Below the pieces are notes generated by a model. That model saw only the letters and a program-made list of their open reading frames with translations. It searched no databases and was not told the origin of the DNA. 27,768 bases of DNA, taken from assembly GCA_964385215.1 (NCBI GenBank), contig CAYLOF010000001.1, positions 1 through 27,768 on the forward strand, in the 5' to 3' direction. This document shows positions 6,280 through 26,516 of this stretch, one piece after another; the first letter of the stretch is position 1, and each line of letters begins with the position of its first letter. This stretch comes from an uncultured Thermoplasmatales archaeon (GTDB taxonomy: Archaea > Thermoplasmatota > E2 > DHVEG-1). A program made the translations under genes and the position numbers.

Positions 6280-6332
6280 AAAATCTAGATGATTTCAGTG
6301 CTTCTCTTCAGTACACGAGTTTCTAGATGTAC

Positions 6333-6345
6333 AAAAAGTTTAAAT
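6333..6345 (+). promoter_or_regulatory. BRE/TATA-like promoter for 6405
   Basis: AAAAAGTTTAAAT about 60 nt upstream of ATG 6405; GGGGCG RBS-like element before the start. Confidence 0.45.
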
Positions 6346-6404
6346 AATTAACAATCGTTTATATAATTAATAATAGATAACCAATTTATGGGGCGTGAAA
6401 CAAT

Positions 6405-8090: not shown

Positions 8091-8146
8091 TAAAACCTTT
8101 AATATTCCAACGCCATAATAGAGCAAATATTTGGATGTGAAATACA

Positions 8147-9406: not shown

Positions 9407-9460
9407 AAATTACTCAAATAATCGCTTTTATTCATTCTTTATTAAATGATTAACAAAAAT

Positions 9461-9499
9461 ATTATAAGTTGATAAATGTTTATATAATTATAAGTTGAT
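9461..9499 (+). promoter_or_regulatory. TATA box flanked by a 13-bp direct repeat
   Basis: ATTATAAGTTGAT at 9461-9473 and 9487-9499 brackets AAATGTTTATATA; GGAG RBS at 9508 before TTG 9520. Confidence 0.55.
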
Positions 9500-9519
9500 T
9501 AATATTTGGAGAAATTGAA

Positions 9520-11959: not shown

Positions 11960-14900
11960 TTAAGCATCTATTGGTTCTGGTGATGTCCACTCAGGACTAT
12001 ATACGATAAGATCTGGATCTCCGTATAGGCACTGAACTGTTGTCACAGTAAGAGATGAAGAACCGTACATTGACGTTGGATCTTTTGTTGTAAAATCTCG
12101 CAGATGACGCCAAACTTCATTAGAATATGCTAGGCCTATTGAAACACCATCAACCATAACACTATCAAAGACGATATTGTCCATTAAATCTTCCTGTGGA
12201 GTTAATCCCGATCCTGCATTACCAAAGAAGAAAGATGCTCCGTGATCAAGATATACCATTGGTCCAAACGCATCACCGGTTGTACATGAAAGATAGAATA
12301 TTACATTGCTTCCTAGATTTTCAAATAATTCGTCAGCATAGTCATAGTGAATAATGTCATACAAGGATGGTGGTTCAGCATTATACCAACTTCTTCCATT
12401 GTTTCTGACAATCTGCCAATTATCATATTTTGAATAACCACGCCATGCATCCCACCATATTTGTTCTGGGTAGTTACAATGTTCTGTTTGGTCAAATTGT
12501 GCAGATGTTCCACTTCCACCAGTTCCATGTCCTGCATAATACATAGCACTTGCACCTTCATTTAAACGTTGAAGATGAGCATCCCATAAACAATGACCCT
12601 CGTAGTTTCTAAAATGAGATCCAAATGATTTCTTAACACTTCTACTTGAGTAAGCTGGTGTTGTCTCGTGATCGTTAGTTGTCCATTGACCACCATCTGC
12701 AAAGTTCATAAGTTGAGAAGTTGTGACATCACGATTCGGGTTTGCAAAGATTACTGCAGGATATAATATATTTCTTAATACCATTGCAGAAGTATACGCT
12801 GGTGTGATTCCTACAATGTGTCCTGCATATGAGTTATTGCCCAACATAACTGAGTGAGCCGGGATATATATGTCCTTTCGAGGTGCTACGAAACAGTATC
12901 CTTCTTTTCCAGATTGGTCAAGCCCTAGGCTATTGATATAATTGTATATTCCATCATGCAATTCTTCATTCCAATATCTTTTTGCATCCATTCCCAAAGG
13001 CGGAAGTCCTCCTGATGATCCTCCAGAGATTGCATATAAAAATGCGTCAAAGAGGGATTTTATAGACCATTCTCCTTCTCCAGCTAAGGGTTCATTGTGA
13101 TCTGGAAGATGTCCAGTTGATCTCGAACCATGATAATAATCTCCTGACCAAAGTCTCCAAGTTTCTATTCTGTCAGCCACACCTGCTGGATTTTCCGGTG
13201 CCTCTCCTATTCTAAGAACTGGAGAGCAATGATATGCAGCAAGCATTGCAGCAGGGGCAAAGTATCCATCTCCGGATTTAATTGAAGTTATGGTAATATA
13301 ATTTTCAGAGTTGTCATATCCTTTGACATAGTCAACAATATCTTGCATAGTCGTTAGATCTGCGTCAATGGTTGGTAAATCATTTTTCACATCCGCTCCA
13401 ATATTGCCTCTTTCAACAAATATGACTTTGCTAACGCCAAGCTGACTTAATGCATTAGATGTTGCAGATGGAATGCTGTCCGAATTGACGTACAATAATG
13501 GAGCATGTTCCTGCGATGCAATAACTGCTGCATTAGCTGCAGATATTGATGCATCCGCTCGCGAATGGGTTGCTCGTAATTCCGCCGTAATTGTATATGT
13601 CACATCTGAACCCTCAGAATTTCTTGGTACTACTATTGCTGTCCATTTCCCCTCATCAGGATGAAGTGCTTCTACTGAAAAATCAAGATGTGGTTCAGGA
13701 TTCCAAGTTCTCCATGGATTGTCCACTGGGTTTTCTAATCCATTCCATTCATGTATTGGATTTACAGGTCCATTCCATTGAGGAATATCAGGTGATATTA
13801 GATATCCTTCAGGATCAATAAGAAATACAATCAAATCAGATGGAGAGTCAGTTTGAGTTTTAACACTTAGTACAGATTCTGAATCATCAACATTGAGGGT
13901 ATACCGATCTCCCGCAAACTTTTTCACAGTGATATGGGACCAATCATCAGATGTTATATCAGAGCCTGTTCCCCAAATTCCAGGTTCTGCAATCGGATAA
14001 TAAACATCTATGCCATCTCCACTACCGTCATATGGAACGGGCCACCAATCCCCTCCAAAATTCATAAACTTGGGGAAATAACATGTTAAGAAATTCGCGT
14101 CGTCGTTGGCATGATATCCTGTTATATCATGTATTTCAACTTGAATTGCTCCCCATTTTTCATTCAAAAACATAGTATATTGGAGTTCAGTATTAAAAGC
14201 AGGATCGCTACTTTGAATATTTTCGACTTCCACTTCCCGTTTTAATGTTGTTGTTTTTTCAACTAACGTTGTAACACTATCTTCGAATTCACTGCCATCT
14301 ACTGCAATAACTGCAAGATCAGATGAGGTCCAACCTTGAGTTGCTATTTCAGCAGCTGCTGTTACTGGGTCAGAAGGTACTGTGTATTCAACTGCTACCT
14401 TTTCATGCAACGAAAGGTATGCATTCCAATCATCTATTAGATATTGTGTCGTGTCGTCAACCGTTCCTCTGTCAGCATCCACTCCAAACCAATTTGTAGG
14501 CGTATCATCGCCCTCATAGAAAATTGGGGCTAAATATCTTTGTCCACCTTCGTAATAGTTACAAGCGGGTACTGATGAAAGATAGGCATATTCGTCATTA
14601 TTGCTATTTGGATCATTAGTTATTATGAAACTTTTTGCAATAGGGGTGATATCAGGTTGAGGTATTGGAGCAGGGGGCGATGGCGCGCTTGATTCAACTG
14701 CAAAGTTCATCTTGTATGCACCAGATCCATATGTGTAGTATTTCCAATCAACCGGTTGAGGGATATCTGTGTACCCTGGGAAAATATCAATTTTAACTCG
14801 CCATTCTCCCGACTCGTCAGCAGGATAAAGCAATTCATCATCATAGTAGTAATCTTCTTCAAAAACCAATTCTCCACTAGGATTATACAACGAAATATCA

Positions 14901-15721
14901 AAGTCGGATAGGTAGGCAAGTTTTTTCATTTCTAAAGTAAAGTGGATGCCTTGGCCAGAATTAATATTGAATTTATACCAATCTTGCTCATCATTCATAT
15001 CAACGTATCCGTAATACTCACCAGGGCTTATTGTAGTGGCACCACTAAACGAGTTACCAGCATCACTTCCGGTGCCAGCATCATTTTGACTAGATAAAGA
15101 AACATCAAAAGTATACTCGCCATCACCTGAATCGCTACCTGGAACTATTGCCATATAATAATATCCACTATATTCTGCTACGTATGTAATTGATTCTGTA
15201 GTACTTGGTCCAGTAGAAGTGGCCATTTCATCTCCGGCATCATTATGAAGATAAAGATCATAGTTGTCAGTTGCAAAAAATGACATTTCGATAGTTTGAC
15301 CTTCACACACAGAGAAGAAATACCAATCTTCGTCACCACTAGATGTAATCTTCCCAGTTCTGCCTCTGCCAGGAGTATTATCAATCATTTCACCTGGGTA
15401 TAAAGCAGTAGCTCGAGAGATCTTATCTCCTGCATCCCTTCGGGTTCCTGCATCATCAAAGTCATCGCCATCAAGATTTAGCGGCTCCTCTGAATAAGGA
15501 TCTTGAATGATATATTTATTGTCAAGCCAAAATGGACCTAAATCTATAGTATCTTTGGTAGGTTCAGCAATTGGGTCACGGAAGATTGTTGCATCTTCAT
15601 TGACAAGCAAACTTTTTTCCTTTTCCACTCCTATCGAACCTGCAGGAACAAGAAACATTGTTCCAAGCAGCAGTATTGTTAAAACAACAGCGTCTATTTT
15701 TATGTTTTTTCTATATTTCAA
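11960..15721 (-). CDS. Large secreted clan CD (gingipain/C25-like) cysteine peptidase with N-terminal PPC-like repeats and CWB2-like repeats
   Basis: TTG start with AGGGGG RBS; signal peptide; two DAG...DAG..S.AT.I/LxPGE...D.D.Y.F PPC-like units; CWB2-like segments; catalytic-type YYAGHG (His1065) and YLSCTTG (Cys1146); terminal YGDP motif as in C25 proteins. Confidence 0.7.
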   Translation of the reverse strand: MKYRKNIKIDAVVLTILLLGTMFLVPAGSIGVEKEKSLLVNEDATIFRDPIAEPTKDTIDLGPFWLDNKYIIQDPYSEEPLNLDGDDFDDAGTRRDAGDKISRATALYPGEMIDNTPGRGRTGKITSSGDEDWYFFSVCEGQTIEMSFFATDNYDLYLHNDAGDEMATSTGPSTTESITYVAEYSGYYYMAIVPGSDSGDGEYTFDVSLSSQNDAGTGSDAGNSFSGATTISPGEYYGYVDMNDEQDWYKFNINSGQGIHFTLEMKKLAYLSDFDISLYNPSGELVFEEDYYYDDELLYPADESGEWRVKIDIFPGYTDIPQPVDWKYYTYGSGAYKMNFAVESSAPSPPAPIPQPDITPIAKSFIITNDPNSNNDEYAYLSSVPACNYYEGGQRYLAPIFYEGDDTPTNWFGVDADRGTVDDTTQYLIDDWNAYLSLHEKVAVEYTVPSDPVTAAAEIATQGWTSSDLAVIAVDGSEFEDSVTTLVEKTTTLKREVEVENIQSSDPAFNTELQYTMFLNEKWGAIQVEIHDITGYHANDDANFLTCYFPKFMNFGGDWWPVPYDGSGDGIDVYYPIAEPGIWGTGSDITSDDWSHITVKKFAGDRYTLNVDDSESVLSVKTQTDSPSDLIVFLIDPEGYLISPDIPQWNGPVNPIHEWNGLENPVDNPWRTWNPEPHLDFSVEALHPDEGKWTAIVVPRNSEGSDVTYTITAELRATHSRADASISAANAAVIASQEHAPLLYVNSDSIPSATSNALSQLGVSKVIFVERGNIGADVKNDLPTIDADLTTMQDIVDYVKGYDNSENYITITSIKSGDGYFAPAAMLAAYHCSPVLRIGEAPENPAGVADRIETWRLWSGDYYHGSRSTGHLPDHNEPLAGEGEWSIKSLFDAFLYAISGGSSGGLPPLGMDAKRYWNEELHDGIYNYINSLGLDQSGKEGYCFVAPRKDIYIPAHSVMLGNNSYAGHIVGITPAYTSAMVLRNILYPAVIFANPNRDVTTSQLMNFADGGQWTTNDHETTPAYSSRSVKKSFGSHFRNYEGHCLWDAHLQRLNEGASAMYYAGHGTGGSGTSAQFDQTEHCNYPEQIWWDAWRGYSKYDNWQIVRNNGRSWYNAEPPSLYDIIHYDYADELFENLGSNVIFYLSCTTGDAFGPMVYLDHGASFFFGNAGSGLTPQEDLMDNIVFDSVMVDGVSIGLAYSNEVWRHLRDFTTKDPTSMYGSSSLTVTTVQCLYGDPDLIVYSPEWTSPEPIDA

Positions 15722-15773
15722 TTTATTCTGCCCCCTAATCTGATATATATATTAAATATATATGATACTTGAT

Positions 15774-15795
15774 GTATAAATAATTTACCTTTATC
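15774..15795 (-). promoter_or_regulatory. BRE/TATA-like promoter for the 1253-aa gene
   Basis: The minus strand reads gataaaggtaaattaTTTATAc about 55 nt upstream of the start. Confidence 0.4.
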
Positions 15796-16041
15796 ATTTT
15801 ATCTAGATCATTCTTTAATGTTTGATAGTAATTAATATTCAAGCTTATGTTATCATGCTATCTTAGGTATCTTAGGAAAATACTCCCAATGTTATCCAAA
15901 TTTAATACTAATACCACTATTATGTAACATTTACTACATACTATACCTTTTCACTACACATTTTCCATTTATATAATATTGTAATAGTGCAAAATGTATT
16001 AACACTCTAGAGATGGACAACATGGCTCTCTGTTTTTAACA

Positions 16042-16117
16042 AAATTCAAGCAAATTCAAGCAAAACATTACGAAACATTTATACATTACCTAATATATAT
16101 ACAATAGGGGAAACCTT
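16042..16117 (+). promoter_or_regulatory. Promoter of 16118 with upstream 10-bp phased repeats, BRE/TATA and GGGGA RBS
   Basis: aaattcaagc twice (16042, 16052), aaaacattac, cgaaacaTTTATA (16071-16083), taGGGGAaaccttATG. Confidence 0.6.
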
Positions 16118-16218
16118 ATGAATAAATCAAAAAAGGCAAAAATATTTATTGAGGCAGCTTTAGTGATTGTTGTTACATTGGCTTTACTTATGCCAGCTTC
16201 AGCAGTAGTCACTAACAA
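16071..16218 (+). repeat. 5' constant block, copy 1 (promoter + RBS + signal peptide); copy 2 at 17841..17988
   Basis: 148-nt ungapped alignment, 8 mismatches by manual count, offset 1770. Confidence 0.95.
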
Positions 16219-17713
16219 TGTAGACAATGCCTATGGTTTTGAGAGAGTTGATAACCAAGGCAATTTAAAGAAAAAAACAATAGCCAATACTTTTGCAGGA
16301 GATGACATTTGGGCGACACCATTCCAAGGTGATGATTATATACCAGCAATTACTAAAGATTTAGATGGTAATGTTGTAATATCCTGGACAAATGAACAGA
16401 GTTTCAGTGAATCATATTTTGGAATAAGTTATTCTGATGATCCATCTGATGCGCAAACATGGTATGATAATGGATTGGTTCTAACACTCTCTGGAAATGA
16501 TTATGGTTTTGATACTGCACTAATCGTAGGACCTGAATCTGATGATTTCAAGGGTCTTGTTGGTGTCTATTTCTCTTTAGCTGATGATTTAGCTGGCTAT
16601 TATGAAATTGAAGACATCACTGGAGATTTTGGAGATTGGCCAATTTATTCCTGGACTGATTTTGGACAAGATTCTTATTACTCATGTATTGCGGATGGTG
16701 GTTTTGTTCAGGGAGGATATTATCCTGACATGTTTGGACCAATGATATTTCATATATGTTTAAATGATCTATGTGGAACCATACCTGAATGTCCAGTTTT
16801 TGGCCATATTGATATTCGCAATGATGGTAGTGGCGTATTTTTCTATGATTGCCAGGAATTTGAACAGACAGCACCAGCCGCAGACCCTGATTACTTTATG
16901 GTTGTAGATAGAGAGATATATCATACAGTAGTCTATAATCATGAAACCAATGACGTGATATGGAAAAAAGTCGACCCAACTGTTGAACATGATTATGAAT
17001 ACACTCCATTCCAGAGTACCATTGGAACAGGAACAAACCCTGCTATTGCAGGCTATGGCACAAATGTAGCTGTTGTTTATACAGATGAAGGACAGGTAAA
17101 ATGTGCACATAGTAGTGATGATGGAGAAACATGGGACACTTCACCAGTAGCTTCAGGAGGATTTTCAGACATATGTGCAGTTGGAACAACGCTTTATGTT
17201 ACATACATCTCTAGTGGAAATTTATTTAAAGTTACATCAGAGGATGGTGGAGCAACCTGGAGTCAAGCAGAGCAAATAAACGATGTCGATGGAACTGTTG
17301 TTGCAATGGAAAATTCTGTTGATATACATGAAGCAGGAATTGTATGGGTAGATGAAAGAGGCGAAGATTGGGATATCTATTATGAAGGACTAGTGAGCAT
17401 ACCACAACCAAAAATTGAAATAGATCAGATAGCCGGAGGTATCGGTGTCAGTGCAGTAGTTACAAACAATGGAGATGTCGATGCAACAGATGTAGAGTGG
17501 AGCATCACATTAGATGGTACAGTATTCCTTGGCGCTGAGAAAACTGACACAATTTCAAGCATTGCAGTTGGTGAATCCGTCCCAATTAAATCAGGATTCC
17601 CATTAGGCTTTGGTCCTATAGATATAACAATAACTGCACAAAGTGCTGAAGGACCATCTGATACAGAAACAGCAAGTGGAAAGTTACTTCTATTCTTTAT
17701 AACTGGATTATAA
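16118..17713 (+). CDS. Secreted BNR/Asp-box (sialidase-like propeller) protein with shared C-terminal domain, paralogue A
   Basis: Signal peptide ending PASA; Asp-boxes SSDDGETW and SEDGGATW; IVWVDER..DWDIYY; C-terminal domain 17408-17713 ending LLLFFITGL. Confidence 0.8.
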   Translation: MNKSKKAKIFIEAALVIVVTLALLMPASAVVTNNVDNAYGFERVDNQGNLKKKTIANTFAGDDIWATPFQGDDYIPAITKDLDGNVVISWTNEQSFSESYFGISYSDDPSDAQTWYDNGLVLTLSGNDYGFDTALIVGPESDDFKGLVGVYFSLADDLAGYYEIEDITGDFGDWPIYSWTDFGQDSYYSCIADGGFVQGGYYPDMFGPMIFHICLNDLCGTIPECPVFGHIDIRNDGSGVFFYDCQEFEQTAPAADPDYFMVVDREIYHTVVYNHETNDVIWKKVDPTVEHDYEYTPFQSTIGTGTNPAIAGYGTNVAVVYTDEGQVKCAHSSDDGETWDTSPVASGGFSDICAVGTTLYVTYISSGNLFKVTSEDGGATWSQAEQINDVDGTVVAMENSVDIHEAGIVWVDERGEDWDIYYEGLVSIPQPKIEIDQIAGGIGVSAVVTNNGDVDATDVEWSITLDGTVFLGAEKTDTISSIAVGESVPIKSGFPLGFGPIDITITAQSAEGPSDTETASGKLLLFFITGL

Positions 17714-17751
17714 TTAGAATAGATAAAACTACCCACCTCTCTTCTTTTTTT
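17491..17751 (+). repeat. 3' constant block, copy 1 (distal C-terminal domain + 3' UTR + terminator); copy 2 at 19294..19554
   Basis: 261-nt ungapped alignment, 7 mismatches by manual count, all transitions, offset 1803. Confidence 0.95.
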
Positions 17752-17760
17752 TTAATTTTT
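17731..17760 (+). terminator. Oligo-T terminator of paralogue A
   Basis: acccacctctcttc followed by T9 and aattttt. Confidence 0.6.
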
Positions 17761-17840
17761 AATTAAACATACAAATATTTCTTTATATTGTGGCTTGCTT
17801 TACCTCTTAACTATTAATTGTATAAAAATTATGGGTAAAG

Positions 17841-17887
17841 CGAAACATTTATACATTACTTAATATATATAAGGTAGGGGAAACCTT
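17841..17887 (+). promoter_or_regulatory. Promoter and RBS of paralogue B, near-identical to that of paralogue A
   Basis: cgaaacaTTTATAcattac...taGGGGAaaccttATG. Confidence 0.65.
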
Positions 17888-19516
17888 ATGAATAAAGCAA
17901 AAAAGGCAAAAATATTTATTGAGGCAGCTTTAGTGGTTGTTGTTACACTGGCTTTAATTATGCCAGCTTCAGCAGTAGTCACTAACAAAACAACGGATAA
18001 TTCAACATCCATTAAAATAGTTCCAACGAATACACCGATTTCAAATGCAGGATCATTAGCTGCAGGCAATATTTTAATAACGGCAGACAATCCTGATGAA
18101 GATGATCAAAACCCAAAGATACTAAAGGACGGTGGAGGAAACATCCTTGTTGTTTATGAAAAAGTTAAGGACACCTTCACCATCGCCAGTGAGTTAGTTT
18201 TTACAGACGATGATGGAGCTACATGGTATTTGGCATATGATTTTGATTCCACAAATTGGGACTCTGGTTCCGGTGAGCTTATATCAGGGGACATATCATA
18301 CAATCCAGCTATTGATAAAACTTTCTGGTGTGCAATAGATGCAATTGGCGATATGTACAATCTAAGAATGACTTGGTTGGAGGGAAATATTGTCAATGCT
18401 GGAGACGTTACGATATATGGTGTTTCTGGTACAGGTGCAACAGAACATTATGAGACATCATGTACTTGTGTGTCTGAATGGGCAATCACTCCATATATTT
18501 GCGATGAACCTGATTATGATCTTTATCGTTGCCCTGGCCTAGGATATTGGGATATCGATTTTGAGCATCCAGATATGGGTGGATTTTATTATGATGGAGG
18601 ATCAATCCTTGAAACCACTCCCGCAAGCAATATCGAGGCTGAAACTGGTGTAGAACGCATGTACATGGTAATGCAAGTTGATGATAAGATTGCTTTCAAG
18701 GCAACTACTACTGATCCGGAACTTCTTCAAACCAATGGCGGCGGACCTGGAGGAATGGACCAATATGCAGATATCGAATGCTGGCCATGGCAAAATTGGA
18801 TTGCAACAGAAAACGCAGAAGATCCTGATGTTTCAGGTGATGCTGGAAAAGTCTGTGTTGTCTATTCACAGGACGGAATGGTAAAATGTGCATATAGTAG
18901 CGATGTTGTAAAGGAATATGAAGAAGAAATTGAATTCCAAGTATCTGAGATAGATGCGGGGAGCTATCCAACTGTTTATATGTCTGGAAATGACGTATAC
19001 GTCGGATACGTAGAGAGTGGAAACCTTTACTTCATAAAATCTACTGACGGTGGAGCAACATGGGGCACTCCTGTACAAAAGAACGAAATAGATGGAACTG
19101 TTGTTGGACAATATGGTACTTGTCACATCGATTCTGTTGGTATTGTTTGGACTGACTCTAGAAACGGAAACTATGATGTTTATTATGATGTAACTCAATA
19201 CATCCCACAACCAAAAATAGACATTGAACAAATATCCGGTGGTTTAGGAGTTAGCGCAGTTGTAACAAACAATGGAGATGCTGATGCTACAAATGTAGAG
19301 TGGAGTATCACATTAGATGGTACAGTATTTCTTGGCGCTGAGAAAACTGACACAATTTCAAGCATTGCAGTTGGCGAATCCGTCCCAATTAAATCAGGAT
19401 TCCCATTAGGTTTTGGCCCTATAGATGTAACAATAACTGCACAAAGTGCTGAAGGACCATCTGATACAGAAACAGCAAGTGGAAAGTTACTTCTATTCTT
19501 TATAACTGGATTATGA
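17888..19516 (+). CDS. Secreted BNR/Asp-box propeller protein with shared C-terminal domain, paralogue B
   Basis: Signal peptide nearly identical to paralogue A; Asp-boxes TDDDGATW and STDGGATW; IVWTDSRNGNYDVYY; C-terminal domain 19211-19516. Confidence 0.8.
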   Translation: MNKAKKAKIFIEAALVVVVTLALIMPASAVVTNKTTDNSTSIKIVPTNTPISNAGSLAAGNILITADNPDEDDQNPKILKDGGGNILVVYEKVKDTFTIASELVFTDDDGATWYLAYDFDSTNWDSGSGELISGDISYNPAIDKTFWCAIDAIGDMYNLRMTWLEGNIVNAGDVTIYGVSGTGATEHYETSCTCVSEWAITPYICDEPDYDLYRCPGLGYWDIDFEHPDMGGFYYDGGSILETTPASNIEAETGVERMYMVMQVDDKIAFKATTTDPELLQTNGGGPGGMDQYADIECWPWQNWIATENAEDPDVSGDAGKVCVVYSQDGMVKCAYSSDVVKEYEEEIEFQVSEIDAGSYPTVYMSGNDVYVGYVESGNLYFIKSTDGGATWGTPVQKNEIDGTVVGQYGTCHIDSVGIVWTDSRNGNYDVYYDVTQYIPQPKIDIEQISGGLGVSAVVTNNGDADATNVEWSITLDGTVFLGAEKTDTISSIAVGESVPIKSGFPLGFGPIDVTITAQSAEGPSDTETASGKLLLFFITGL

Positions 19517-19532
19517 TTAGAATAGATAAAAC

Positions 19533-19565
19533 TACCCACCTCTCTTCTTTTTTTATTTTCTTTTT
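19533..19565 (+). terminator. Oligo-T terminator of paralogue B
   Basis: Same acccacctctcttc + T-run as paralogue A. Confidence 0.6.
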
Positions 19566-19742
19566 TAATAAATTTATTTAATAAAATTCTGTTATTATTT
19601 TATATTGCTTATATTAAACAAAACATTTAAGTAATGGAAAATAGATATCTTCCATAACATTGGAGGAAAAAAGTTATAGATTGTAAAGTGAAGAAAAATA
19701 TGAGTATTTGTTAGATACATACAGACAAAATTGGTGAAAAAT

Positions 19743-21320
19743 ATGAAGAAAAAAAATATTGGAATATATGCAATAACATTGATTATTGCAGGGCTGATGA
19801 TTGCAGTTTCTGCTACTGCTATAGTGCAGAAACCAAACGAGGAAAAAAGATACATTAACTGGAATAGAACTGAGGCTTGTATATCTGGAGTAGAAATGAC
19901 AGAAATAATGCCTGCAAAAGAACTCAAACATGCACCAGGACAACTTAGTGCTGATCCATTGTATAATGGCGCCTATCCAGATGTTGCAAGTGGAGGATCT
20001 AACATTTGTCTCGGTTTTGATAGTTTAGAGACTCCAGGTACAGCATTTACATTCTCACAAGACGGCGGTGCATCCTGGCATGAAAGTGCATATGGTTGGG
20101 AATTAGGAGAATCAATGTGGCCCTCAGTTGACTTTTCAGCAGGTAATCGATTCTATGGAACAGTTTCCCCAGATTGGTCAACAAATGGTTATGTGACTCA
20201 ATGTGATTTTGTGGATATAACTGACCCAGAAACATGGGTTGCTGGTACTTGGGACTGGTCATCATATGATATGATGGAGTTTGAAGGAATATCTATTGCA
20301 GCAATGGATGATAGCCTAGAAGAATGGAGATGGGGATTCATCACAATGTCGGGCTACAATGGATATAACGACCCCGCTGCAGATGGTTGTCCATATGTGA
20401 TGTATGCAACTGATGATGGCTATGCTACAATTAGCTGGCTAATAGATAGTGACTCAGGAGATATCCTTGGTGGCTGTGAAAATGCAGCTAGTGAAATAGA
20501 TCCAGTTCGCTACCATAATTATGCAATATGGGAACGATATAATGATGACGAGGAAAGTTACAACTTAGAATTCCGTAAGGATGATTCTGCTGCAGAAGCA
20601 GGTGAAAGCGGATTTGTTACAGCAGGAGAACTAGTAACCTCTGAAAATAGCCGTTATCCTGATATTAGCGCCTATGATAGCAATGTCATTATTGTTTCAG
20701 AAGCAGATGGAGATATAGTCTGCTATTATTCTAATAATGGACTGAACAATTTCGATGCAATTTTTGTAGCATCCACAACAGATGACGAAACATTTCCGAG
20801 GATAACCCATACAGGAGAAGATGAAGCAATTTGCACCTTTATTAAAAATGAAAATATCTACTACTCCATGACAGATGATGGAGGAGCTACATGGGACGAA
20901 CCTACAATGATTAATGATGTAGAAGGACAAGTAACAGAAGATTACCTTTCATCAGGCGTCTGTGAATTGGGTGCATGTTTCGGCGGCAATGATGATATAG
21001 TTTATTATGGGGCAGTAGGGGCCAAACCTATTATTACAATTGAAGGGTTTACTGGCGGTCTTGGTGCAACTGCAACCATAAAGAACGTAGGGACTGCTGA
21101 TGCAACAAATGTGGAATGCTCCATAACTGTGACAGGCGGAATTTTAGGGATGGTAAACAAAACAGTCACTGAAACAATATCAGGTATTGCAGTAGACGAA
21201 GAGGTAACCATAAGTACAGGAATCTTTTTGGGACTTGGTGCAATAGAAATAACCGCTACCGCAGGATCGTCAAGTGATTCCACAACAGGTACACAGATAC
21301 TGATCTATACAATGCTATAA
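19743..21320 (+). CDS. Secreted BNR/Asp-box propeller protein with divergent shared C-terminal domain, paralogue C
   Basis: GGTGA RBS before ATG 19743 (ORF track starts at GTG 19731); signal peptide ending SATA; SQDGGASW and TDDGGATW Asp-boxes; C-terminal domain 21027-21320 ending QILIYTML. Confidence 0.8.
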   Translation: MKKKNIGIYAITLIIAGLMIAVSATAIVQKPNEEKRYINWNRTEACISGVEMTEIMPAKELKHAPGQLSADPLYNGAYPDVASGGSNICLGFDSLETPGTAFTFSQDGGASWHESAYGWELGESMWPSVDFSAGNRFYGTVSPDWSTNGYVTQCDFVDITDPETWVAGTWDWSSYDMMEFEGISIAAMDDSLEEWRWGFITMSGYNGYNDPAADGCPYVMYATDDGYATISWLIDSDSGDILGGCENAASEIDPVRYHNYAIWERYNDDEESYNLEFRKDDSAAEAGESGFVTAGELVTSENSRYPDISAYDSNVIIVSEADGDIVCYYSNNGLNNFDAIFVASTTDDETFPRITHTGEDEAICTFIKNENIYYSMTDDGGATWDEPTMINDVEGQVTEDYLSSGVCELGACFGGNDDIVYYGAVGAKPIITIEGFTGGLGATATIKNVGTADATNVECSITVTGGILGMVNKTVTETISGIAVDEEVTISTGIFLGLGAIEITATAGSSSDSTTGTQILIYTML

Positions 21321-21332
21321 ATCGGTAAGCAA

Positions 21333-21363
21333 CTCCTCTCTTCCTTTTTTTCTTTTTTATTTC
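21333..21363 (+). terminator. Oligo-T terminator of paralogue C
   Basis: actcctctcttcc followed by T7, c, T6; same cctctcttc core as A and B. Confidence 0.55.
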
Positions 21364-21504
21364 TGCTAGATCATCCTTATTGTTTTTCAATAATTTGTAT
21401 CTATGTAATTGCTAGGATTAGATATAAGTGATAAATGCTGCAAACTAGTTTCTTGAACGGAAGCAATTGCTAAATGTTCTAGTTCAAACCCTTGAAACAG
21501 ATGT

Positions 21505-23091
21505 TTACCAAGGCCAAAGATGATGCCAAGATCCTTGCAAATATAGTTCAATGGAAATTGATGTAAATTCAATTTCACCAGTTGTCTCTAAATTCCAGTC
21601 AACAGGAGGCCAGACCGTCCAATCAAGACGAAAATCTTCGGCTTTGAACATTTCAGATACCGTTCTTATTCCAAGGTCCTCTCCCTGTATCAAAAGGTCA
21701 ATTTCATTCAATGGCTGCCAGTTTGTATCGTATTCTAAATATCCTGTAATATTGGTGTACCATGAAATTGAGATGTCCTCAGCTGCTGGCATAGCGTTAA
21801 GTTTTGCTACCCACTCGCCGATATAAAACTCAATATCAATGTTAAATGATGGATTCTTTTTTACAACAAATTCGCCCGGATTCGTCAGATTCCATTGAGC
21901 AGTCATATCGATATCTTCAAGATTACGTATGGTTAGGTTAACAGTTGGGTTTGTTAAAGAATCTTTGAGGATAAAATCAGTCCCATCGGAATCTACAACA
22001 ATGGAATATGAGCCATTTTCTCGTGTTGGTGTCCATTCAGCATTGATTTTTCGTGGAGTATTTTTAATAGTAGCATATTTACATACTCCCATTTCAGTTG
22101 ATGTAACAAGCACCTCAACATCATACATTTCATCACTTTCATACAGAAAGCTACCACCTCCATCGATCAAAGGTGTTAGCGCAAGAGAAAAGGATAGTTC
22201 CTTAGGAATTTCATCAATTGTAAAGACTGTTTCTTTTTCCTCTTCATCCTTTATTCTTGTAAAATTAACAGTGATTTTCGCATCAGTAGACGATTCTCGA
22301 ATAAATTGATATTTCCATTCACCTTGATTTCGTGTTGAAGAGATAGTCATTTGTGTTTCTATGGCGGGTTCAAAATCAAAAGAAAAAATCTTCTCAGTGT
22401 CTTCACTGGTATGTTTCGCATAGAATACAATTTGTTTGCCTTCTCTTCCAGTTAAATATTCTGGGTTCACATAAAATTTCAATCCATTTGTCTGTTCAGT
22501 GGGATTGAAAAATAACATACAGGATATTCGTATGGAGTTAGGAATTTCGTTTCCTTCATTAGATGGAGACCAATATCCCATCTCTAGGTTATTGTTTCCA
22601 AAATCCATAGTAAACTTGAAGTTTTTATCTTTTATTTCTTCACCAATTCGCTCTATATTTACAGTGAAAAGAAGACCAAAAATAAGATTTGGATCTGGCA
22701 ATATATATGGAAGTATCAGGAACTGTACCCGGATATCAGCACCATTAATTCCTGTGTTTTCATTATCATCAACATCAATGTCATTAAAAAATCCAAAATA
22801 TACTTCCTTTGTTTTTTCTACATCATTACATGTTGTATGTATGACACTGGTAAAAATCCCACTTTGCTTAAGATTTTTGCCATACCCTCTATAAATATTT
22901 TTTATGTTATCTCTAAAATTAAAAGATTGTTTCATTTTTTCAGAGAATTTTCCATCAGCATTTTCTAATAATTTTTTAGTATACGGCTCATGATGTCCGA
23001 TGCTTGCCATTCCAGATGGTAGTATGGTCCCAATCAAAAAAAACACAACCAAAATGACCAATATGTTTTCCAATATTTTGTTTTTCTTCAT
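21505..23091 (-). CDS. Secreted beta-rich hypothetical protein with ~45-58-aa internal repeats
   Basis: GAGGTGA RBS; signal peptide; DIDVDDNENTG acidic motif; recurring TIxN/ExPxxIxxxW units; Trp-rich end WHHLWPW. Confidence 0.75.
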   Translation of the reverse strand: MKKNKILENILVILVVFFLIGTILPSGMASIGHHEPYTKKLLENADGKFSEKMKQSFNFRDNIKNIYRGYGKNLKQSGIFTSVIHTTCNDVEKTKEVYFGFFNDIDVDDNENTGINGADIRVQFLILPYILPDPNLIFGLLFTVNIERIGEEIKDKNFKFTMDFGNNNLEMGYWSPSNEGNEIPNSIRISCMLFFNPTEQTNGLKFYVNPEYLTGREGKQIVFYAKHTSEDTEKIFSFDFEPAIETQMTISSTRNQGEWKYQFIRESSTDAKITVNFTRIKDEEEKETVFTIDEIPKELSFSLALTPLIDGGGSFLYESDEMYDVEVLVTSTEMGVCKYATIKNTPRKINAEWTPTRENGSYSIVVDSDGTDFILKDSLTNPTVNLTIRNLEDIDMTAQWNLTNPGEFVVKKNPSFNIDIEFYIGEWVAKLNAMPAAEDISISWYTNITGYLEYDTNWQPLNEIDLLIQGEDLGIRTVSEMFKAEDFRLDWTVWPPVDWNLETTGEIEFTSISIELYLQGSWHHLWPW

Positions 23092-23220
23092 TTAAACGTC
23101 ACCTCTTAACTCGCTATATATTTATTACATTATATATCTTTGTTGCTAATATTATATAGCATTTCCGTTAATTTCCAACAACTTTGGCCAAATATTTTGA
23201 AAAATCCATCATAAAAGCGA

Positions 23221-24450
23221 CTATTTTGATAAACTACCCCACGTTTTCTTTAGCATGAAGGCAAGAACCAACGCACATAGGGCGATACTCAGTCCGAACC
23301 CATATGTTTTACCCACTTTGGCATTTGTTTTGAAGAAACCTAAAGGATACAAATCTATGCTTTCCCCATTAGGTAATATGCCCTCATACGGCACGTCTCC
23401 AATACCGTCACCATCTGCATCTGTTCCGTTATAATCGCTCCAATAATTGCCAATTTTGTTTTTATACCATTGATTGTCAAAAGTATCATATGCACTTTTA
23501 TTGTTTAATGAAAAGTTATTTAGATAAAGCGTATTAAAATAAGATTTACAGCATATCCAACAGCCAAACATTTTGCTCGAATGTATTGCATTTTCAAAGA
23601 CCATGTTGTCATTGGAGTGTATAATGTAAATCCCATAATCGTTATTTCCTACAAAATTTTCGGTAACAGTATTATTTGACGCATAGTTTAAACGTATCCC
23701 AAAGATGCTATTAGAAACACTAGTATTTATGATTGAACAAGTTGAAGAGTACCCAAGCACAATGCCTTGATCTGCATTTGATATGGTTATATCTTGTATT
23801 GTAAGGTTAGTACAGTTTGATATGATTACTTGGCCAGGCTCATCAGGTGAAATTGTTTTGTTAACCATGTTTTTGTAGAAGTAAAGCTTTTTTCCATTTA
23901 CTGTGTTGTTTTTGATAATATGGGTATTCCAACCAGTAATGTTGCCTACGATGTTTATTCCGTCATTTATAAATGTATTATTCTCAAAAACATTGTTTGA
24001 TGAATGGTATAAATAGATGCCCCAATCGCTGTTGTTTTCAATGATATTATCTGTTATTGCATTGTTGTCCGATTCAATATTTATGCCAGAATAACCCTTG
24101 CCCTTAGAATTTCTTACAGTAAATCTCTTAAAAGTACATCCATCTGCTGTTATAGACACAGTTTCGCCACTTTCATTGTATTCTATTATTGTAGATGATT
24201 TTTCTTCCCCGATGAGATGTACTGTTTTATATAGTCTAATGCTCTCACGATAGATACCATTAGAAACATATATGATGTCACCTTGTTGTGCATTATTTAT
24301 GGCGTCCTGTATGGACAGAAATTTTCCATCTGTCTCTCCTCCTACGTATATGGCATTTTTATCTGCAGCCAAACAATTATTAGCGGGAATTAAAAAGAGC
24401 ATAAGTAACAAAAGTGTAATTGATATTTCAATGAATTTTTTGTTATTCAT
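23221..24450 (-). CDS. Secreted beta-helix (NosD/CASH-like) protein with a PGF-CTERM-like membrane anchor
   Basis: Signal peptide; SIQDAINNAQQGDIIYVSNGIYRE cap; coils; GNYWSDY.GTDADGDGIGDVPY; tail KTYGF + hydrophobic helix + KK. Confidence 0.85.
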   Translation of the reverse strand: MNNKKFIEISITLLLLMLFLIPANNCLAADKNAIYVGGETDGKFLSIQDAINNAQQGDIIYVSNGIYRESIRLYKTVHLIGEEKSSTIIEYNESGETVSITADGCTFKRFTVRNSKGKGYSGINIESDNNAITDNIIENNSDWGIYLYHSSNNVFENNTFINDGINIVGNITGWNTHIIKNNTVNGKKLYFYKNMVNKTISPDEPGQVIISNCTNLTIQDITISNADQGIVLGYSSTCSIINTSVSNSIFGIRLNYASNNTVTENFVGNNDYGIYIIHSNDNMVFENAIHSSKMFGCWICCKSYFNTLYLNNFSLNNKSAYDTFDNQWYKNKIGNYWSDYNGTDADGDGIGDVPYEGILPNGESIDLYPLGFFKTNAKVGKTYGFGLSIALCALVLAFMLKKTWGSLSK

Positions 24451-24556
24451 AAAGTTAAGTCGTATGAAAAGATTGGCATTTTATAAGTTTTACCTAAAAG
24501 GAACGTGTAGATCTTTACTTCTCACATTAAGTTTCTTAATTCCAAGTAGATAGGTA

Positions 24557-24571
24557 GGAAATATTTATATA
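24557..24571 (+). promoter_or_regulatory. BRE/TATA-like promoter for the C25 peptidase operon
   Basis: GGAAATATTTATATA about 46 nt upstream of ATG 24617; AAGGGGC RBS. Confidence 0.5.
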
Positions 24572-24616
24572 GCCACAAAGTATATATTATTATACTATAC
24601 ATAAGGGGCATAAATC

Positions 24617-26515
24617 ATGAAAGAAACTTTGCCAATACTAATAGTAGGAATTTTAATTATAAGTGGACTTGGAGCAGTTGCTATACCAGATAGTGAACCA
24701 GAAGTGTTTGTAAAAGCAGATACAATATCTCTTTCAGAGCCAGTTTTTGAAGTGAGTGGAGAATATCTATCTGTAGATTTTGAAGAATCGACATCTATGC
24801 TTTTGGATGAGGGAAAACCTGTGATACCGTCCGTGTCTAAGACATTTGTCTTTCCTCTTGGAACAAAAATTGTTAATACAGATATTAGCTCTGATATTAA
24901 GGAGTATGATCTTTCCATGAAGATCCAACCTTCACCAAAACCTGTTCCATCGGCCAGTAATCTTTTGTCAAAGATGTCGGTAGAAGTGATTCCAGATGAA
25001 TTGGTGTATTCAAGCGAAGATATGTATCCTTCTGAATTTTATTCCATAAAAATGGGGGCAGGATTAAAGGATAAAGAACATGTTCTTTATTTTACAGTTA
25101 AATGTTATGCTCAATATTCTCCAGCAACAGATGTACTAATCATTCCAGAAAATATTGAGATTAAGATTGAATACAATCTACCAAAAACTTCTCTCCTAAC
25201 TGCTGATGAATATGATATGCTTATCATTACTGACAAGAAGTTTGAATCACAGCTACAACCATTGGTGAATCACAAAAACAACATTGGTGTAAAAACAATA
25301 CTTGAAACAACTGATAAGATTTACTCAAACTATAATGGCCGTGACGATCCTGAAGATATTAAATTACGTATTAAGGATGCCATCGAAGAATGGGGCATTG
25401 AATATGTGCTCCTTGCAGGCGGTCGCAAAGGCCAAACATTTGAGTGGTACGTGCCCGACCGAAGAACAAATCTTGACGATGCATCAGGCTATGAAACGGG
25501 TTATTCCAGTGATTTATATTATGCAGATATTTACAAATATGATGGTAGTTTTGACGATTGGGACTCCAATGGTAACGGTGTGTTTGCCGAATTTTCTTCT
25601 TTTGGCGTTAATAAAGATATCATTGATTACTATCCTGATGTTTATGTTGGAAGGATACCTCTCCGATATTCGTGGGAAGCAGATATTGCCGTGAATAAAA
25701 TTTTAACCTATGAAAATTCAGCTGATGACTCATGGTTTAAAAATGCATATGTGGTATCTGGAGACACTTCTCCTCCTGCTCGAGGAAACGTTGAAGAGGG
25801 AGTCTATGAAGGTGAGCTTTCTACGGCTATCACTGTAGATCTGTTAGAAGATATCGGCTTTAATGTAGAGAAACTTTGGACTTCTGGAACATGGGATTGT
25901 AAAGAGGATGTTACTAATGCAATAAGTTCTGGTTCTGGATTTATTCATTTTGCTGGACATGGGAATCCTTCAAGTTGGGTTAATTTCCTTCCTGATGCTC
26001 AGACTGAAGAGGAGAAGGTCGATGGTTTTGGACTATCAGATATGAGAAAATATTCAAATGGCAATAAACTTCCGATTGTCATTGTTGGTGGTTGTCATAA
26101 TGCTCAATTCAATGTAACAATGCAATTTCTATTAGAAGGTCTTCTTGAACATGGAATGGAGTATCTTAATTATGAATTTTGGTTTATGGAATGGGTACCA
26201 TCTGACACCTGCTCTTGGTTCATGTTAGAAGGCGGCGGCGGAGCTATTGCTTCAATTGGGAACACTGGTCTTGGTTACGGATATGTCAACGAATTTTGCA
26301 CTGAGGGTCTTGGGGGTTGGATCAATCCGCGATTCTTCCATGCATATGCTAGTCAAAACAAAGAGGTTCTTGGAGAAGCACATAGTCAGGCAATTGTAGA
26401 TTATCTTAACATTGTGTTTGGAGAAGTAGCACCTGGAAATATGGATGTGGATAGAAAAACTATCGAAGAATGGGAACTCTTAGGTGATCCTAGCTTGAAG
26501 ATTGGAGGTATATAA
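24617..26515 (+). CDS. Secreted peptidase family C25 (gingipain-like) cysteine peptidase with propeptide
   Basis: Signal peptide; GKPVIP propeptide; YDMLIIT...LVNHK...GV; YVLLAG; SDLYYAD; DVYVGRIP; FAGHG (His448); VGGCHNAQF (Cys493); GAIASIG; W.LLGDPSLKI. Confidence 0.9.
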   Translation: MKETLPILIVGILIISGLGAVAIPDSEPEVFVKADTISLSEPVFEVSGEYLSVDFEESTSMLLDEGKPVIPSVSKTFVFPLGTKIVNTDISSDIKEYDLSMKIQPSPKPVPSASNLLSKMSVEVIPDELVYSSEDMYPSEFYSIKMGAGLKDKEHVLYFTVKCYAQYSPATDVLIIPENIEIKIEYNLPKTSLLTADEYDMLIITDKKFESQLQPLVNHKNNIGVKTILETTDKIYSNYNGRDDPEDIKLRIKDAIEEWGIEYVLLAGGRKGQTFEWYVPDRRTNLDDASGYETGYSSDLYYADIYKYDGSFDDWDSNGNGVFAEFSSFGVNKDIIDYYPDVYVGRIPLRYSWEADIAVNKILTYENSADDSWFKNAYVVSGDTSPPARGNVEEGVYEGELSTAITVDLLEDIGFNVEKLWTSGTWDCKEDVTNAISSGSGFIHFAGHGNPSSWVNFLPDAQTEEEKVDGFGLSDMRKYSNGNKLPIVIVGGCHNAQFNVTMQFLLEGLLEHGMEYLNYEFWFMEWVPSDTCSWFMLEGGGGAIASIGNTGLGYGYVNEFCTEGLGGWINPRFFHAYASQNKEVLGEAHSQAIVDYLNIVFGEVAPGNMDVDRKTIEEWELLGDPSLKIGGI

Positions 26516-26516
26516 A

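Follow-up and report, generated by a model that had tools for sequence, protein, structure and literature searches.

A probable secreted-protein island of a Thermoplasmatota archaeon with two gingipain-type peptidases, BNR-type propellers and a widespread C-terminal domain

In a sediment Thermoplasmatota archaeon, MBG-D/Thermoprofundales-like, three genes that share a C-terminal domain (CTD) lie between two clan CD cysteine peptidases, and a fourth gene with the same CTD is adjacent. This raises the question of whether one of the peptidases serves as the sortase or maturase of the CTD, as the first-pass annotation had suggested with PorU of Bacteroidota as its model, or whether both are ordinary secreted enzymes. 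We analysed the surrounding 27.7-kb stretch of DNA (hereafter the window; Table 1). The layout was confirmed, with the fourth tagged gene just outside the range given for the system, in keeping with its description as adjacent. Both flanking enzymes are of the clan CD/C25 type, and neither is tagged: a CTD HMM found no carrier among the window ORFs beyond the four tagged genes. The island thus encodes a canonical C25 zymogen, a divergent C25-like peptidase termed BIG, and three BNR-type beta-propellers.

Table 1. Features of the window, with positions in nucleotides.
Feature	Position	Strand	Support
Secreted PKD-repeat protein with second tag (helix tail) at C-terminus	8147..9406	+	Pfam PKD_4 E 3e-34
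Secreted rhodanese + PKD + CTD protein (fourth tagged gene)	9520..11577	+	Pfam Rhodanese E 4e-11, PKD
CTD of rhodanese protein (aa 579-684 of 685)	11254-11571	+	CTD HMM E 1.4e-40
BIG, 1253-aa secreted divergent gingipain-like (clan CD) cysteine peptidase	11960..15721	-	Pfam PPC, AF2 + Foldseek
Codon of putative catalytic Cys1146 of BIG, motif IFYLSCTTGD	12284..12286	-	>=90% conserved in 32 homologues; after hydrophobic strand E795-799 of model
Codon of putative catalytic His1065 of BIG, motif YYAGHGTGGSG	12527..12529	-	Invariant in 32 homologues; follows beta-strand in model
CWB2-like segment of BIG, aa 727-775	13397..13543	-	phmmer Cwp6 5j72 E 0.003; Foldseek 5j72_A E 1e-4, prob 0.89
PPC (pre-peptidase C-terminal type) domain of BIG, near N-terminus	15152..15334	-	Pfam PF04151 E 4.4e-6
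BNR/Asp-box propeller 1 with CTD (CTD 17393-17707)	16118..17713	+	CTD HMM E 2e-48; weak BNR, CARDB matches
BNR/Asp-box propeller 2 with CTD (CTD 19193-19510)	17888..19516	+	CTD HMM E 6e-49
BNR/Asp-box propeller 3 with CTD (CTD 21018-21314)	19731..21320	+	CTD HMM E 4.5e-33; aligns with propeller family
Secreted 528-aa protein, unknown family	21505..23091	-	Relatives present in 5 CTD loci
NosD-type right-handed beta-helix protein, signal peptide + C-terminal TM anchor	23221..24450	-	Pfam NosD E 4e-26, Beta_helix E 3e-16
Canonical C25 (gingipain-family) peptidase, N-terminal Propeptide_C25, no C-terminal tag	24617..26515	+	Pfam PF01364 E 3e-58, PF08126 E 7e-5
C25 dyad His448	25958-25960	+	Invariant in 20 relatives
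C25 dyad Cys493	26093-26095	+	Invariant in 20 relatives
Secreted 345-aa protein (unk345), likely start ATG 26517	26502..27539	+	Homologue fused to C25 C-terminus elsewhere

Secreted or lipoprotein-like genes make up almost the entire window. The tagged genes and C25 are separated by two further genes on the minus strand, one encoding the 528-aa protein, which matched nothing in Pfam or NCBIfam, and the other the NosD-type protein, whose C-terminal TM anchor was read off the sequence as a hydrophobic C-terminus. Besides this anchor and the CTD, the window contains lipobox-like signals and the helix tail, a C-terminal segment of ~25 aa that closes the PKD-repeat protein (...FLRFLQNHLYIFPILRQLLEL) and was seen again on 24+5 ORFs of related loci. 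The arrangement was found again in other Thermoplasmatota MAGs (L026, L047, L048, L049, L065 and L118), and L026, L049, L047, L048 and L118 contain arrays like that of the window, in which C25 and BIG stand with several CTD genes; in L026 and L049 these include PKD-CTD cargo.

The propellers and the rhodanese protein end in a lineage-typical, Ig-like beta-sandwich of ~100 aa and of the CARDB type. The four all-beta domains align at 93, 43 and 41% identity, the CTDs of propellers 1 and 2 being 93% identical, and match the CTD HMM at E 1e-33 to 6e-49, each ending 1 aa before the stop. At E<=1e-3 the family has 2251 representative proteins, and 952 clusters are left at E<=1e-10, a recurrence that far exceeds chance. 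Its position is C-terminal, at most 12 aa from the end in 152 of 158 matches and terminal in 131/144 ORFs of an unbiased sample of CTD loci, while the cargo is varied (PKD, BNR, PQQ propellers, beta-helix, laminin-G, thioredoxin, M28). The CTD is therefore a real, widespread and previously unnamed family, a modular tag on hundreds of different secreted proteins, and the shared C-terminal tag perceived in the first-pass annotation is borne out.

No specific Pfam or NCBIfam model matches the CTD; Pfam CARDB (PF07705) reached 22.1 bits, under its cutoff of 22.7. The domain closes with a conserved hydrophobic strand (..EGxSxxxxxxGxVLLFFvxG), and in the AF2 model (pLDDT 91) the terminal LLLFFxxG forms an integral strand of an 8-strand sandwich. 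Its nearest folds are FlaF, archaeal pilin domains, CARDB PF1109 and MA_4588, with Foldseek prob 1.0 and TM 0.5-0.59 to 4zbh (FlaF), 2kl6 and 3idu (CARDB) and 2l0d (MA_4588). The fold is that of CARDB and the soluble domain of FlaF, a protein reported to bind the S-layer, but sequence similarity is weak (E 0.004 to 2l0d), and CARDB is usually internal and repeated, whereas the CTD is single, strictly C-terminal and hydrophobic in its final strand. The tags also resemble the PGF-CTERM signals of archaeosortases in that a single lineage has them on many of its secreted proteins, and the helix tail is of comparable length to such short signals. The CTD differs from them in being a folded domain that lacks a TM segment, neither tag matched the NCBIfam sorting-signal models, and no archaeosortase was found in the window.

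BIG begins with a signal peptide and PPC domains, continues with two alpha/beta CWB2-like modules into which beta-sandwiches are inserted, and ends in a caspase-fold domain. In Pfam its sole match was PPC, neither the C25 nor the CW_binding_2 model giving one, and its family profile matches PPC/CBD structures of collagenases (e.g. 5iku, E 9e-10). Gingipain K was the top Foldseek match of the AF2 model (pLDDT 78; E 1.5e-5, prob 1.0); separases came next, and Cwp6 and PorU were also among the top matches. In hhalign, the 81 columns at the C-terminus, with a GNxGxG...GDPxL block, align to the C25 family at E 5.5e-5. Together with the conserved His/Cys pair, these results place BIG in clan CD. It differs from the gingipains RgpB and Kgp (MEROPS C25) in being about twice as long, in its N-terminal PPC domains and CWB2-like modules, and in a ~65-aa insert of low confidence between the His and Cys strands (pLDDT <50, model residues 720-786). 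The label of a CWB2-bearing, cell-surface-binding enzyme has weak backing: BIG resembles the CWB2 modules of Cwp6 in both sequence and fold, but the likeness is weak and below what Pfam recognizes, and we know of no wall polymer in Thermoplasmatota that CWB2 would bind. BIG has over 300 homologues with identities of 53-87%, and almost all of those that are named come from Thermoplasmatota; databases label the protein 'hypothetical' or 'PPC domain-containing'. BIG occurs in multiple paralogous copies (at least four in CP070724, three in CP070836 and two in CP070798).

The second peptidase is a canonical C25 enzyme, as had been stated, with the gingipain-type propeptide, the catalytic domain and an invariant dyad. 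A role as PorU found no support: the NCBIfam PorU model gave 60.6 bits against a cutoff of 420, and the enzyme is nearer to RgpB (1cvr, E 1e-8) than to PorU (6za2, E 0.008). In 114 unbiased CTD loci, seven CTD ORFs match C25; all six of those scanned with Pfam contain Peptidase_C25 (E 1e-38 to 7e-66) and five also Propeptide_C25. Genuine Propeptide_C25 + Peptidase_C25 proteins thus end in the CTD, and other relatives bear the helix tail, which argues that the C25 enzymes are themselves cargo and would act as extracellular hydrolases. Gingipains, too, are cargo in their own system. The peptidases of the window resemble the 'gingipain-like' extracellular peptidases of Thermoprofundales, whose C25 enzymes have been read as extracellular enzymes that degrade protein (PMC6461988, PMC9585477). 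The feeding-protease alternative named in the first-pass annotation fits better than a sortase.

Could the CTD nevertheless be a cleavable sorting signal, removed by a PorU-like BIG or C25 that either links the cargo to an acceptor on the surface or does no more than mature it? The T9SS offers the parallel: an Ig-like domain of ~80-100 aa that forms the very C-terminus of secreted proteins of many unrelated kinds, C25 peptidases included (here propeptide + catalytic domain + Ig/PKD + CTD), with C25-class enzymes encoded near CTD genes. BIG has a fold of the gingipain/PorU class and an intact His/Cys pair, the CTD was never found on BIG proteins, and the arrays described above are retained. However, the CTD matches no T9SS CTD model in sequence, no T9SS CTD is among its top 50 Foldseek matches, no conserved junction motif was found upstream of it, and archaea are not known to have an outer membrane across which a T9SS-like signal would have to act.

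The gene neighbourhoods speak in the same direction. In the unbiased sample, BIG is present in 5/18 propeller-CTD loci and in 0/85 other CTD loci (Fisher p=1e-4), and propeller homologues are found beside BIG with a different C-terminal tail, the helix tail, or with none; the linkage of BIG therefore tracks the body of the BNR propeller and not the tag. Most BIG copies have no CTD neighbour, and when the genes next to CTD genes were clustered without bias, no enzyme family was present in most loci. Within 2.5 kb of BIG, CTD genes reach ~2.4 times the density seen at 7.5-10 kb, and some coupling at the level of the tag is possible. Since the candidate sortase is multi-copy and tied to one cargo type, the C25 relatives are tagged and the window C25 fails the PorU model, the tests run lend no support to either peptidase as a dedicated CTD sortase or maturase, and we consider such a role improbable.

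A different role for BIG would be that of a dedicated protease which, independently of the CTD, processes or activates its neighbours, be it the BNR propellers and/or the C25 zymogens (the latter by removing the propeptide), much as Cwp84 matures SlpA in C. difficile. The window C25 bears a propeptide that requires removal, two BIG clades are consistently C25-linked, and closer than 2.5 kb to BIG there are 5.6 C25 genes per 100 kb, compared with 1.25 at 7.5-10 kb. For CTD genes and C25 genes alike, the density near BIG is about 2-4 times that of the far flanks, which served as the reference in place of genome-wide density. Specific adjacency to propellers and CWB2-like modules, as on Cwp84-type surface proteases, would also suit a surface-held cysteine peptidase that could mature surface proteins, but the CWB2 assignment is weak and BIG belongs to clan CD, unlike the papain-like Cwp84/Cwp6 family. 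Moreover, gingipain zymogens activate by auto- or trans-processing among themselves, most BIG copies lie beside neither type of neighbour, and no cleavage site was identifiable. We therefore regard this role as unlikely, if somewhat less so than that of a sortase.

It may also be asked whether the genes are coupled at all, given that secreted-protein genes could simply aggregate, with peptidases, propellers and tags being independent of each other. The composition of the window would agree with this, CTD genes have NosD beta-helix and PKD proteins as neighbours just as often, and 99 of the 130 immediate neighbours of BIG belong to none of the island families that were scored and have neither of the two C-terminal tags. 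Against it, the adjacency of BIG and propeller is highly non-random even in this secreted-gene context. Propellers adjoin BIG in 8 of ~77 BIG loci across at least three BIG clades, and the adjacency recurs over deep clades at 42-65% identity, with short gaps and in same-strand or divergent orientation. Fused C25+unk345 ORFs (L058, L048 and L099) likewise reveal real coupling inside the island. There is thus only a slim chance that coupling is lacking altogether.

On balance, we lean towards a secreted-protein island that combines clan CD peptidases of the cargo type, a conserved pairing of BIG with a propeller, and a tag for surface retention that can be exchanged for others, neither peptidase acting as a dedicated CTD sortase. 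The CTD may serve to retain proteins at the surface or to target them, by binding some conserved partner in the envelope. Among homologous propellers, rhodanese proteins and PKD proteins, some members end in the CTD and others in the helix tail, and the CTD could be functionally interchangeable with that tail, with the lipobox-like cysteines and with the C-terminal TM anchors of the same island. The conserved functional unit would then be BIG with a BNR propeller. The three propellers of the window are paralogues of ~530 aa, and their identity is supported at the sequence level by Asp-box motifs and a profile match to sialidase BNR propellers (E 6e-6), the Pfam BNR model staying under its cutoff. 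Tricorn protease and the prolyl oligopeptidase family similarly pair a peptidase with a beta-propeller, which could serve to bind substrates or to filter them, although here the peptidase is of clan CD, the propeller is a separate secreted protein and the pairing is known from gene linkage. By pure inference, we posit that the propeller is probably a surface-held binding, capture or gating partner of BIG, or its specific substrate.

The ~100-residue all-beta domain that ends four proteins of the window (hereafter CTD) is a genuine C-terminal module found across the lineage. The CTDs of the three propeller paralogues and of the rhodanese protein align over their last ~100 residues, with identities of 93, 43 and 41%, and none of the other window ORFs contains the domain. 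A profile built from these four copies was used for an exhaustive search of 1.84 billion representative proteins, of which 2251 matched with E<=1e-3 and, under the stricter limit of E<=1e-10, 952. Cluster names, looked up for their taxonomy, gave a single named taxon for 10 CTD proteins. In 152 of 158 proteins examined, the match ended within 12 residues of the C-terminus. The domain starts with a conserved P-x-L-E-I-x-x-I-[ST]-G-G and closes with ..EGxSxxxxxxGxVLLFF-x-x-G, often trailed by a few extra residues, while no conservation was found upstream of the first proline (information content <0.8 bit). The cargo of 88 full-length relatives includes PKD (36), BNR (10), and PQQ and other propellers (8), in addition to beta-helix/NosD, laminin-G, thioredoxin, FG-GAP and MG2 domains; an M28 exopeptidase fragment with a CTD was also found. 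The number of matches at E<=1e-10, their terminal position and the diversity of cargo confirm that the tag recognized in the first-pass annotation is a real shared domain and non-random. Neither Pfam nor NCBIfam holds a specific model for it, and it is apparently undescribed.

In the AF2 model (39 sequences, pLDDT 91), the CTD folds into a sandwich of eight strands, with its hydrophobic terminus built in as an integral strand and not as a membrane segment. The nearest solved folds (TM 0.5-0.59) are FlaF of the archaellum (soluble domain), transglutaminase Ig domains, archaeal pilin domains, PF1109 (CARDB domain) and MA_4588, a cell-surface protein of Methanosarcina. The fold matches CARDB structures 2kl6/3idu with a probability of 1.0 (TM ~0.5), and the sequence relatives are CARDB-like only (2l0d at E 0.004). 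Two window proteins reach 22.1 and 20.5 bits against Pfam CARDB (PF07705), just under the cutoff of 22.7, and 16 of the 88 relatives match it at E<1e-3 (best 1.8e-6). Like the CTD of the bacterial type IX secretion system (T9SS), the archaeal domain is an Ig-like beta-sandwich that forms the very C-terminal end of secreted proteins of many kinds, but it differs in these best structural matches. Solved T9SS CTDs are absent from its top 50 PDB structural matches, and the T9SS tail models (Por_Secre_tail, TIGR04183 / PF18962) gave no match in Pfam/NCBIfam even at E<=10.

Many secreted proteins of these archaea end in a second device, a ~25-aa helix tail with the consensus ..[KR]..F(L)xRFLExFPxxFPILRxLLGL, which in the window reads ...NTPFLRFLQNHLYIFPILRQLLEL. 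Its carriers are PKD, rhodanese and BNR propeller proteins, some C25 peptidases and two paralogues of the 1253-aa window protein BIG; among homologous cargo proteins it stands where others have the CTD. NCBIfam has no model that fits it. The features discussed here are listed in the table; the window has a G+C content of 36%, is contained in salt-marsh metagenome runs and in no RNA run, and its genes almost all encode secreted proteins.

Positions of features in the window and in related loci from other genomes or metagenome contigs (L numbers)
Locus	Feature	Position	Strand	Remarks
Window	Secreted or membrane-anchored protein, convergent pair	105-1355	+	
Window	Secreted or membrane-anchored protein, convergent pair	1367-2659	-	
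Window	Six ORFs with lipobox-like [LF][ST]GC	105, 2819, 3388, 3946, 4989, 5785 (within 105-6174)		motif directly after signal h-region
Window	Protein with helix tail	8147-9406		C-terminus at about nt 9330-9403
Window	Rhodanese+PKD protein, directly upstream of the range 11960-26515	9520-11577	+	signal-peptide-like N-terminus; CTD
Window	BIG, 1253 aa	11960-15721	-	signal-peptide-like N-terminus, read from sequence
Window	Collagenase-type PPC domain of BIG	15152-15334		
Window	Three ~530-aa propeller paralogues	16118-17713, 17888-19516, 19731-21320	+	signal-peptide-like N-termini; CTD
Window	Unassigned 528-aa secreted protein, between propellers and C25	21505-23091	-	signal-peptide-like N-terminus
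Window	NosD-type beta-helix protein	23221-24450	-	signal-peptide-like N-terminus; C-terminal TM
Window	Peptidase_C25	24617-26515	+	signal-peptide-like N-terminus
Window	unk345, 345 aa	26502-27539	+	likely ATG 26517; own signal peptide
L026	Protein with helix tail	18373-19875		
L035	Protein with helix tail	4237-8406		
L041	Protein with helix tail	4159-6090		
L045	Protein with helix tail	4861-6531		
L060	Protein with helix tail	5-1675		
L002	Rhodanese protein	8807-9856		helix tail
L069	Rhodanese protein	14142-15305		helix tail
L077	Rhodanese protein	4386-5600		
L103	Rhodanese protein	153-2210		CTD
L181	Rhodanese protein	10421-11302		helix tail
L048	C25 fused to unk345 homologue	15515-18421		
L058	C25 fused to unk345 homologue	5143-8022		
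L099	C25 fused to unk345 homologue	586-3534		
L180	Relative of 528-aa protein	1415-4093		

The first-pass annotation had suggested that the CTD could be a sorting signal and that one of the two peptidases of the island, either the C25 enzyme or, more plausibly, BIG, could act on it as a sortase-like or maturation enzyme in the manner of PorU. Its description of the former as a canonical C25 peptidase is borne out by a match to PF01364 of 198.2 bits (cutoff 23, E 3e-58) over 373 of 374 profile positions, an N-terminal Propeptide_C25 domain, and G447-H448 and C493 that are invariant in 20 relatives. Judged from its sequence, this is an ordinary C25 enzyme. A PorU identity is not supported by its scores against the sortase model NF033707 (T9SS_sortase; 60.6 bits, cutoff 420) and the PorU2 model (34, cutoff 450), both of which it fails, or by its closer resemblance to RgpB (E 1e-8) than to PorU 6za2 (E 0.008).

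CTD loci were sampled without bias by searching metagenome contigs with a degenerate DNA pattern that describes the core of the domain; this returned 120 loci, of which 114 truly contained the domain (144 ORFs, 131 terminal). Seven of the 144 CTD ORFs matched C25, and the six that were scanned with Pfam all contain Peptidase_C25 (E 1e-38 to 7e-66) with the CTD at the end, accompanied by Propeptide_C25 in five and a PKD domain in two. Other C25 copies end in the helix tail. C25 enzymes thus behave like cargo, with variants that carry the CTD, the helix tail or neither, which agrees with the literature, where the C25 enzymes of Thermoprofundales are usually taken to degrade protein outside the cell (PMC6461988, PMC9585477).

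The gene that follows the window C25 encodes unk345, a protein without a family match in Pfam or NCBIfam, whose likely start lies 3 nt past the C25 stop. Its homologue is fused to the C25 C-terminus in other MAGs (L048, L058 and L099), so that the two are connected by fusion or fission. That they form a single frameshifted gene in the window is ruled out, since C25 ends there in a clean TAA stop and unk345 begins with a separate ATG and signal peptide.

BIG is best described as a divergent, unannotated gingipain-like putative peptidase. Its only Pfam match is PPC, and the clan CD assignment rests on AF2 and Foldseek, since the family profile found by sequence only collagenase PPC domains in the PDB, with no peptidase and no C25 among the matches. 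The AF2 model of residues 346-1253 (pLDDT 78, pTM 0.84; poor between the catalytic strands) has gingipain K as its best Foldseek matches (4rbm, 6i9a; E 1.5e-5 to 7e-5, probability 1.0), followed by the clan CD separases (probability 0.96-1.0), Cwp6 with its CWB2 repeats, and PorU. In the model, strands E714-718 and E795-799, the second of them hydrophobic, precede an invariant His1065-Gly1066 and a Cys1146 conserved in at least 90% of members. The clan CD type given to BIG in the first reading is therefore supported by a gingipain/separase-like fold together with this His/Cys signature. An hhalign comparison with C25 (probability 66%, E 5.5e-5) covers only the C-terminal 81 columns, where the GNxGxG...GDPxL block of BIG meets its counterpart in C25; Pfam C25 itself does not match BIG. 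The further claim that BIG bears CWB2 and hence binds the cell surface held only as far as weak matches to Cwp6, by phmmer (E 0.003 overall, per-domain E-values of 6-12) and by Foldseek (5j72_A, E 1e-4, probability 0.89, at a low TM of 0.13-0.17); Pfam CW_binding_2 (PF04122) was not found in BIG at E<=0.01.

The PPC domain is the only part of BIG that databases recognize. Thermoprofundales transcriptomes show very high expression of an 'M09B collagenase' (PMC6461988), and it is worth checking whether some of these M09B calls are BIG paralogues.

BIG belongs to a large, multi-copy family of paralogues restricted to Thermoplasmatota. A scan with one genome per species found 116 loci, of which 80 were kept, all but two labelled Thermoplasmatota, and nearly all named homologues come from Thermoplasmata, Thermoplasmatales or Thermoplasmatota MAGs. 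Over 300 protein clusters, 53-87% identical, make up the family and are annotated only as hypothetical or as PPC-, PKD- or PQQ-domain proteins; some members are lengthened at the N-terminus by PQQ propeller or PKD sequence (to 1360-1510 aa). Chromosome CP070724 carries at least four copies (e.g., L002, L018, L026 and L050), CP070836 at least three and CP070798 at least two. A single-copy housekeeping enzyme is ruled out by the presence of four or more copies per genome. No CTD was seen on any BIG copy in the related BIG and CTD loci, and some copies end in the helix tail.

At the locus level, the peptidases were not seen to track the tag as expected for a sorting pair. BIG is multi-copy, and 99 of its 130 immediate neighbors (~77 loci) belong to none of the scored island families and have neither tag. 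The remainder includes five CTD genes, eight with the other C-terminal tail, seven C25 genes and six propellers. Measured against BIG's own far flanks (7.5-10 kb), and not a genome-wide background, gene density within 2.5 kb of BIG is higher for both C25 (5.6 versus 1.25 per 100 kb) and the CTD (3.0 versus 1.25). Arrays like that of the window recur in L026, L049, L047, L048/L081 and L065. When all non-CTD neighbors of CTD genes were clustered without bias, no enzyme family turned up in the majority of loci, the most frequent families being C25/PKD (23 loci), NosD beta-helix (13) and BIG (5).

In these five sampled loci BIG lies directly beside a CTD gene, which is a BNR propeller in 5/5 cases. 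BIG occurs in 5 of 18 propeller-CTD loci and in 0 of 85 other CTD loci (Fisher p=1e-4), so that the genomic link follows the propeller cargo and not the tag. Of the BIG-adjacent propellers, those of the window, L047, L048 and L065 have the CTD, those of L035, L045 and L060 a PKD domain with a different ~25-aa C-terminal tail (PKD was not detected in the N-terminally truncated L035 ORF), and that of L067 neither. The tag is dispensable for the linkage. A rough NJ tree distributes the propeller-linked BIGs over three or more separate clades and groups the C25-linked ones into two. The coupling of BIG to BNR propellers is specific and independent of their tail, and BIG is also frequently coupled to C25 genes.

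The reading of the three tagged genes as BNR/Asp-box propellers stands at the sequence level, on the basis of Asp-box motifs and of a family profile with matches to exo-alpha-sialidases (E 6e-6) and to NanC (positions 100-385). Relatives match BNR, BNR_2, PSII_BNR and Sortilin-Vps10, and Pfam BNR is below cutoff in the window proteins. Among 20 family members only W115 and G378 are invariant, and none of the GH33 catalytic residues (Arg triad, Tyr, Glu) is conserved, which rules out GH33 sialidases and makes a binding role likelier than glycosidase activity.

None of the tests able to support a PorU-like role for BIG or C25 did so: some propellers beside BIG bear the helix tail or no tag, and C25 relatives themselves carry the CTD. 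The first reading had merged three things, namely the CTD module, a cargo-like C25 and the coupling of BIG to propellers. We posit instead that the CTD may be an interchangeable surface-retention or targeting domain, because of its CARDB/FlaF-type fold, because it swaps with other C-terminal devices on homologous cargo, and because the same island has lipobox-like cysteines and a C-terminal TM anchor. BIG and the propeller would form a working pair, in which the propeller may be a surface-held binding or capture partner of BIG or else its specific substrate. A quite improbable alternative is that the CTD is the cleaved sorting signal of a Thermoplasmatota-specific surface-attachment pathway, in which the transpeptidase would be a C25-derived enzyme of clan CD (BIG paralogue or C25 subfamily) and the helix tail a second, parallel signal. 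If true, archaea would possess an equivalent of the T9SS PorU/CTD step, one that evolved without an outer membrane.

The lipobox-like motif of the six upstream ORFs (e.g., LSGCITEE, FSGCVEIN) suggests lipoprotein-type anchoring; beside the other devices, the island would thus use at least four different means of retention. Two of the six are further NosD-type beta-helix proteins. One member of the convergent pair has a weak match to a GH127 (beta-L-arabinofuranosidase)/LanC-like alpha-toroid (E 2e-7), and the other has none. The 528-aa protein matches no family among the database models, and its relatives occur in 5 of 114 independent CTD loci. A secreted rhodanese-domain protein adjoins BIG in four loci (the window, L002, L069 and L077), which sets an extracellular rhodanese next to a putative cysteine peptidase.

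Uncultured Thermoplasmatota of the MBG-D/Thermoprofundales type rank with the most abundant archaea of sediments, and protein remineralization is held to be driven by their extracellular peptidases. Gingipain-like peptidases in MBG-D are already known, and the CTD, the helix tail and BIG are variants within C-terminal anchoring/sorting modules and C25-type peptidases that establish no new category. The CTD as a strictly terminal tag, the helix tail, BIG as a clan CD peptidase family and its pairing with propellers were not found in Pfam-A, NCBIfam, PMC6461988, PMC9585477 or the literature searched. Our analysis defines a large unnamed family of strictly C-terminal Ig-like tags, carried by hundreds of secreted proteins, a second, short tag that can take its place on homologous cargo, and a multi-copy, unannotated family of 1250-aa gingipain-like proteins with a conserved pairing to BNR propellers. 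Cleavage of the CTD by a C25-type enzyme, if true, would strikingly parallel T9SS sorting in bacteria. The definitions of the two tags and of BIG would improve the annotation of thousands of 'hypothetical' proteins, and together with the BIG-propeller pair they open concrete ways of testing how these archaea display proteins at their surface and carry out extracellular proteolysis.
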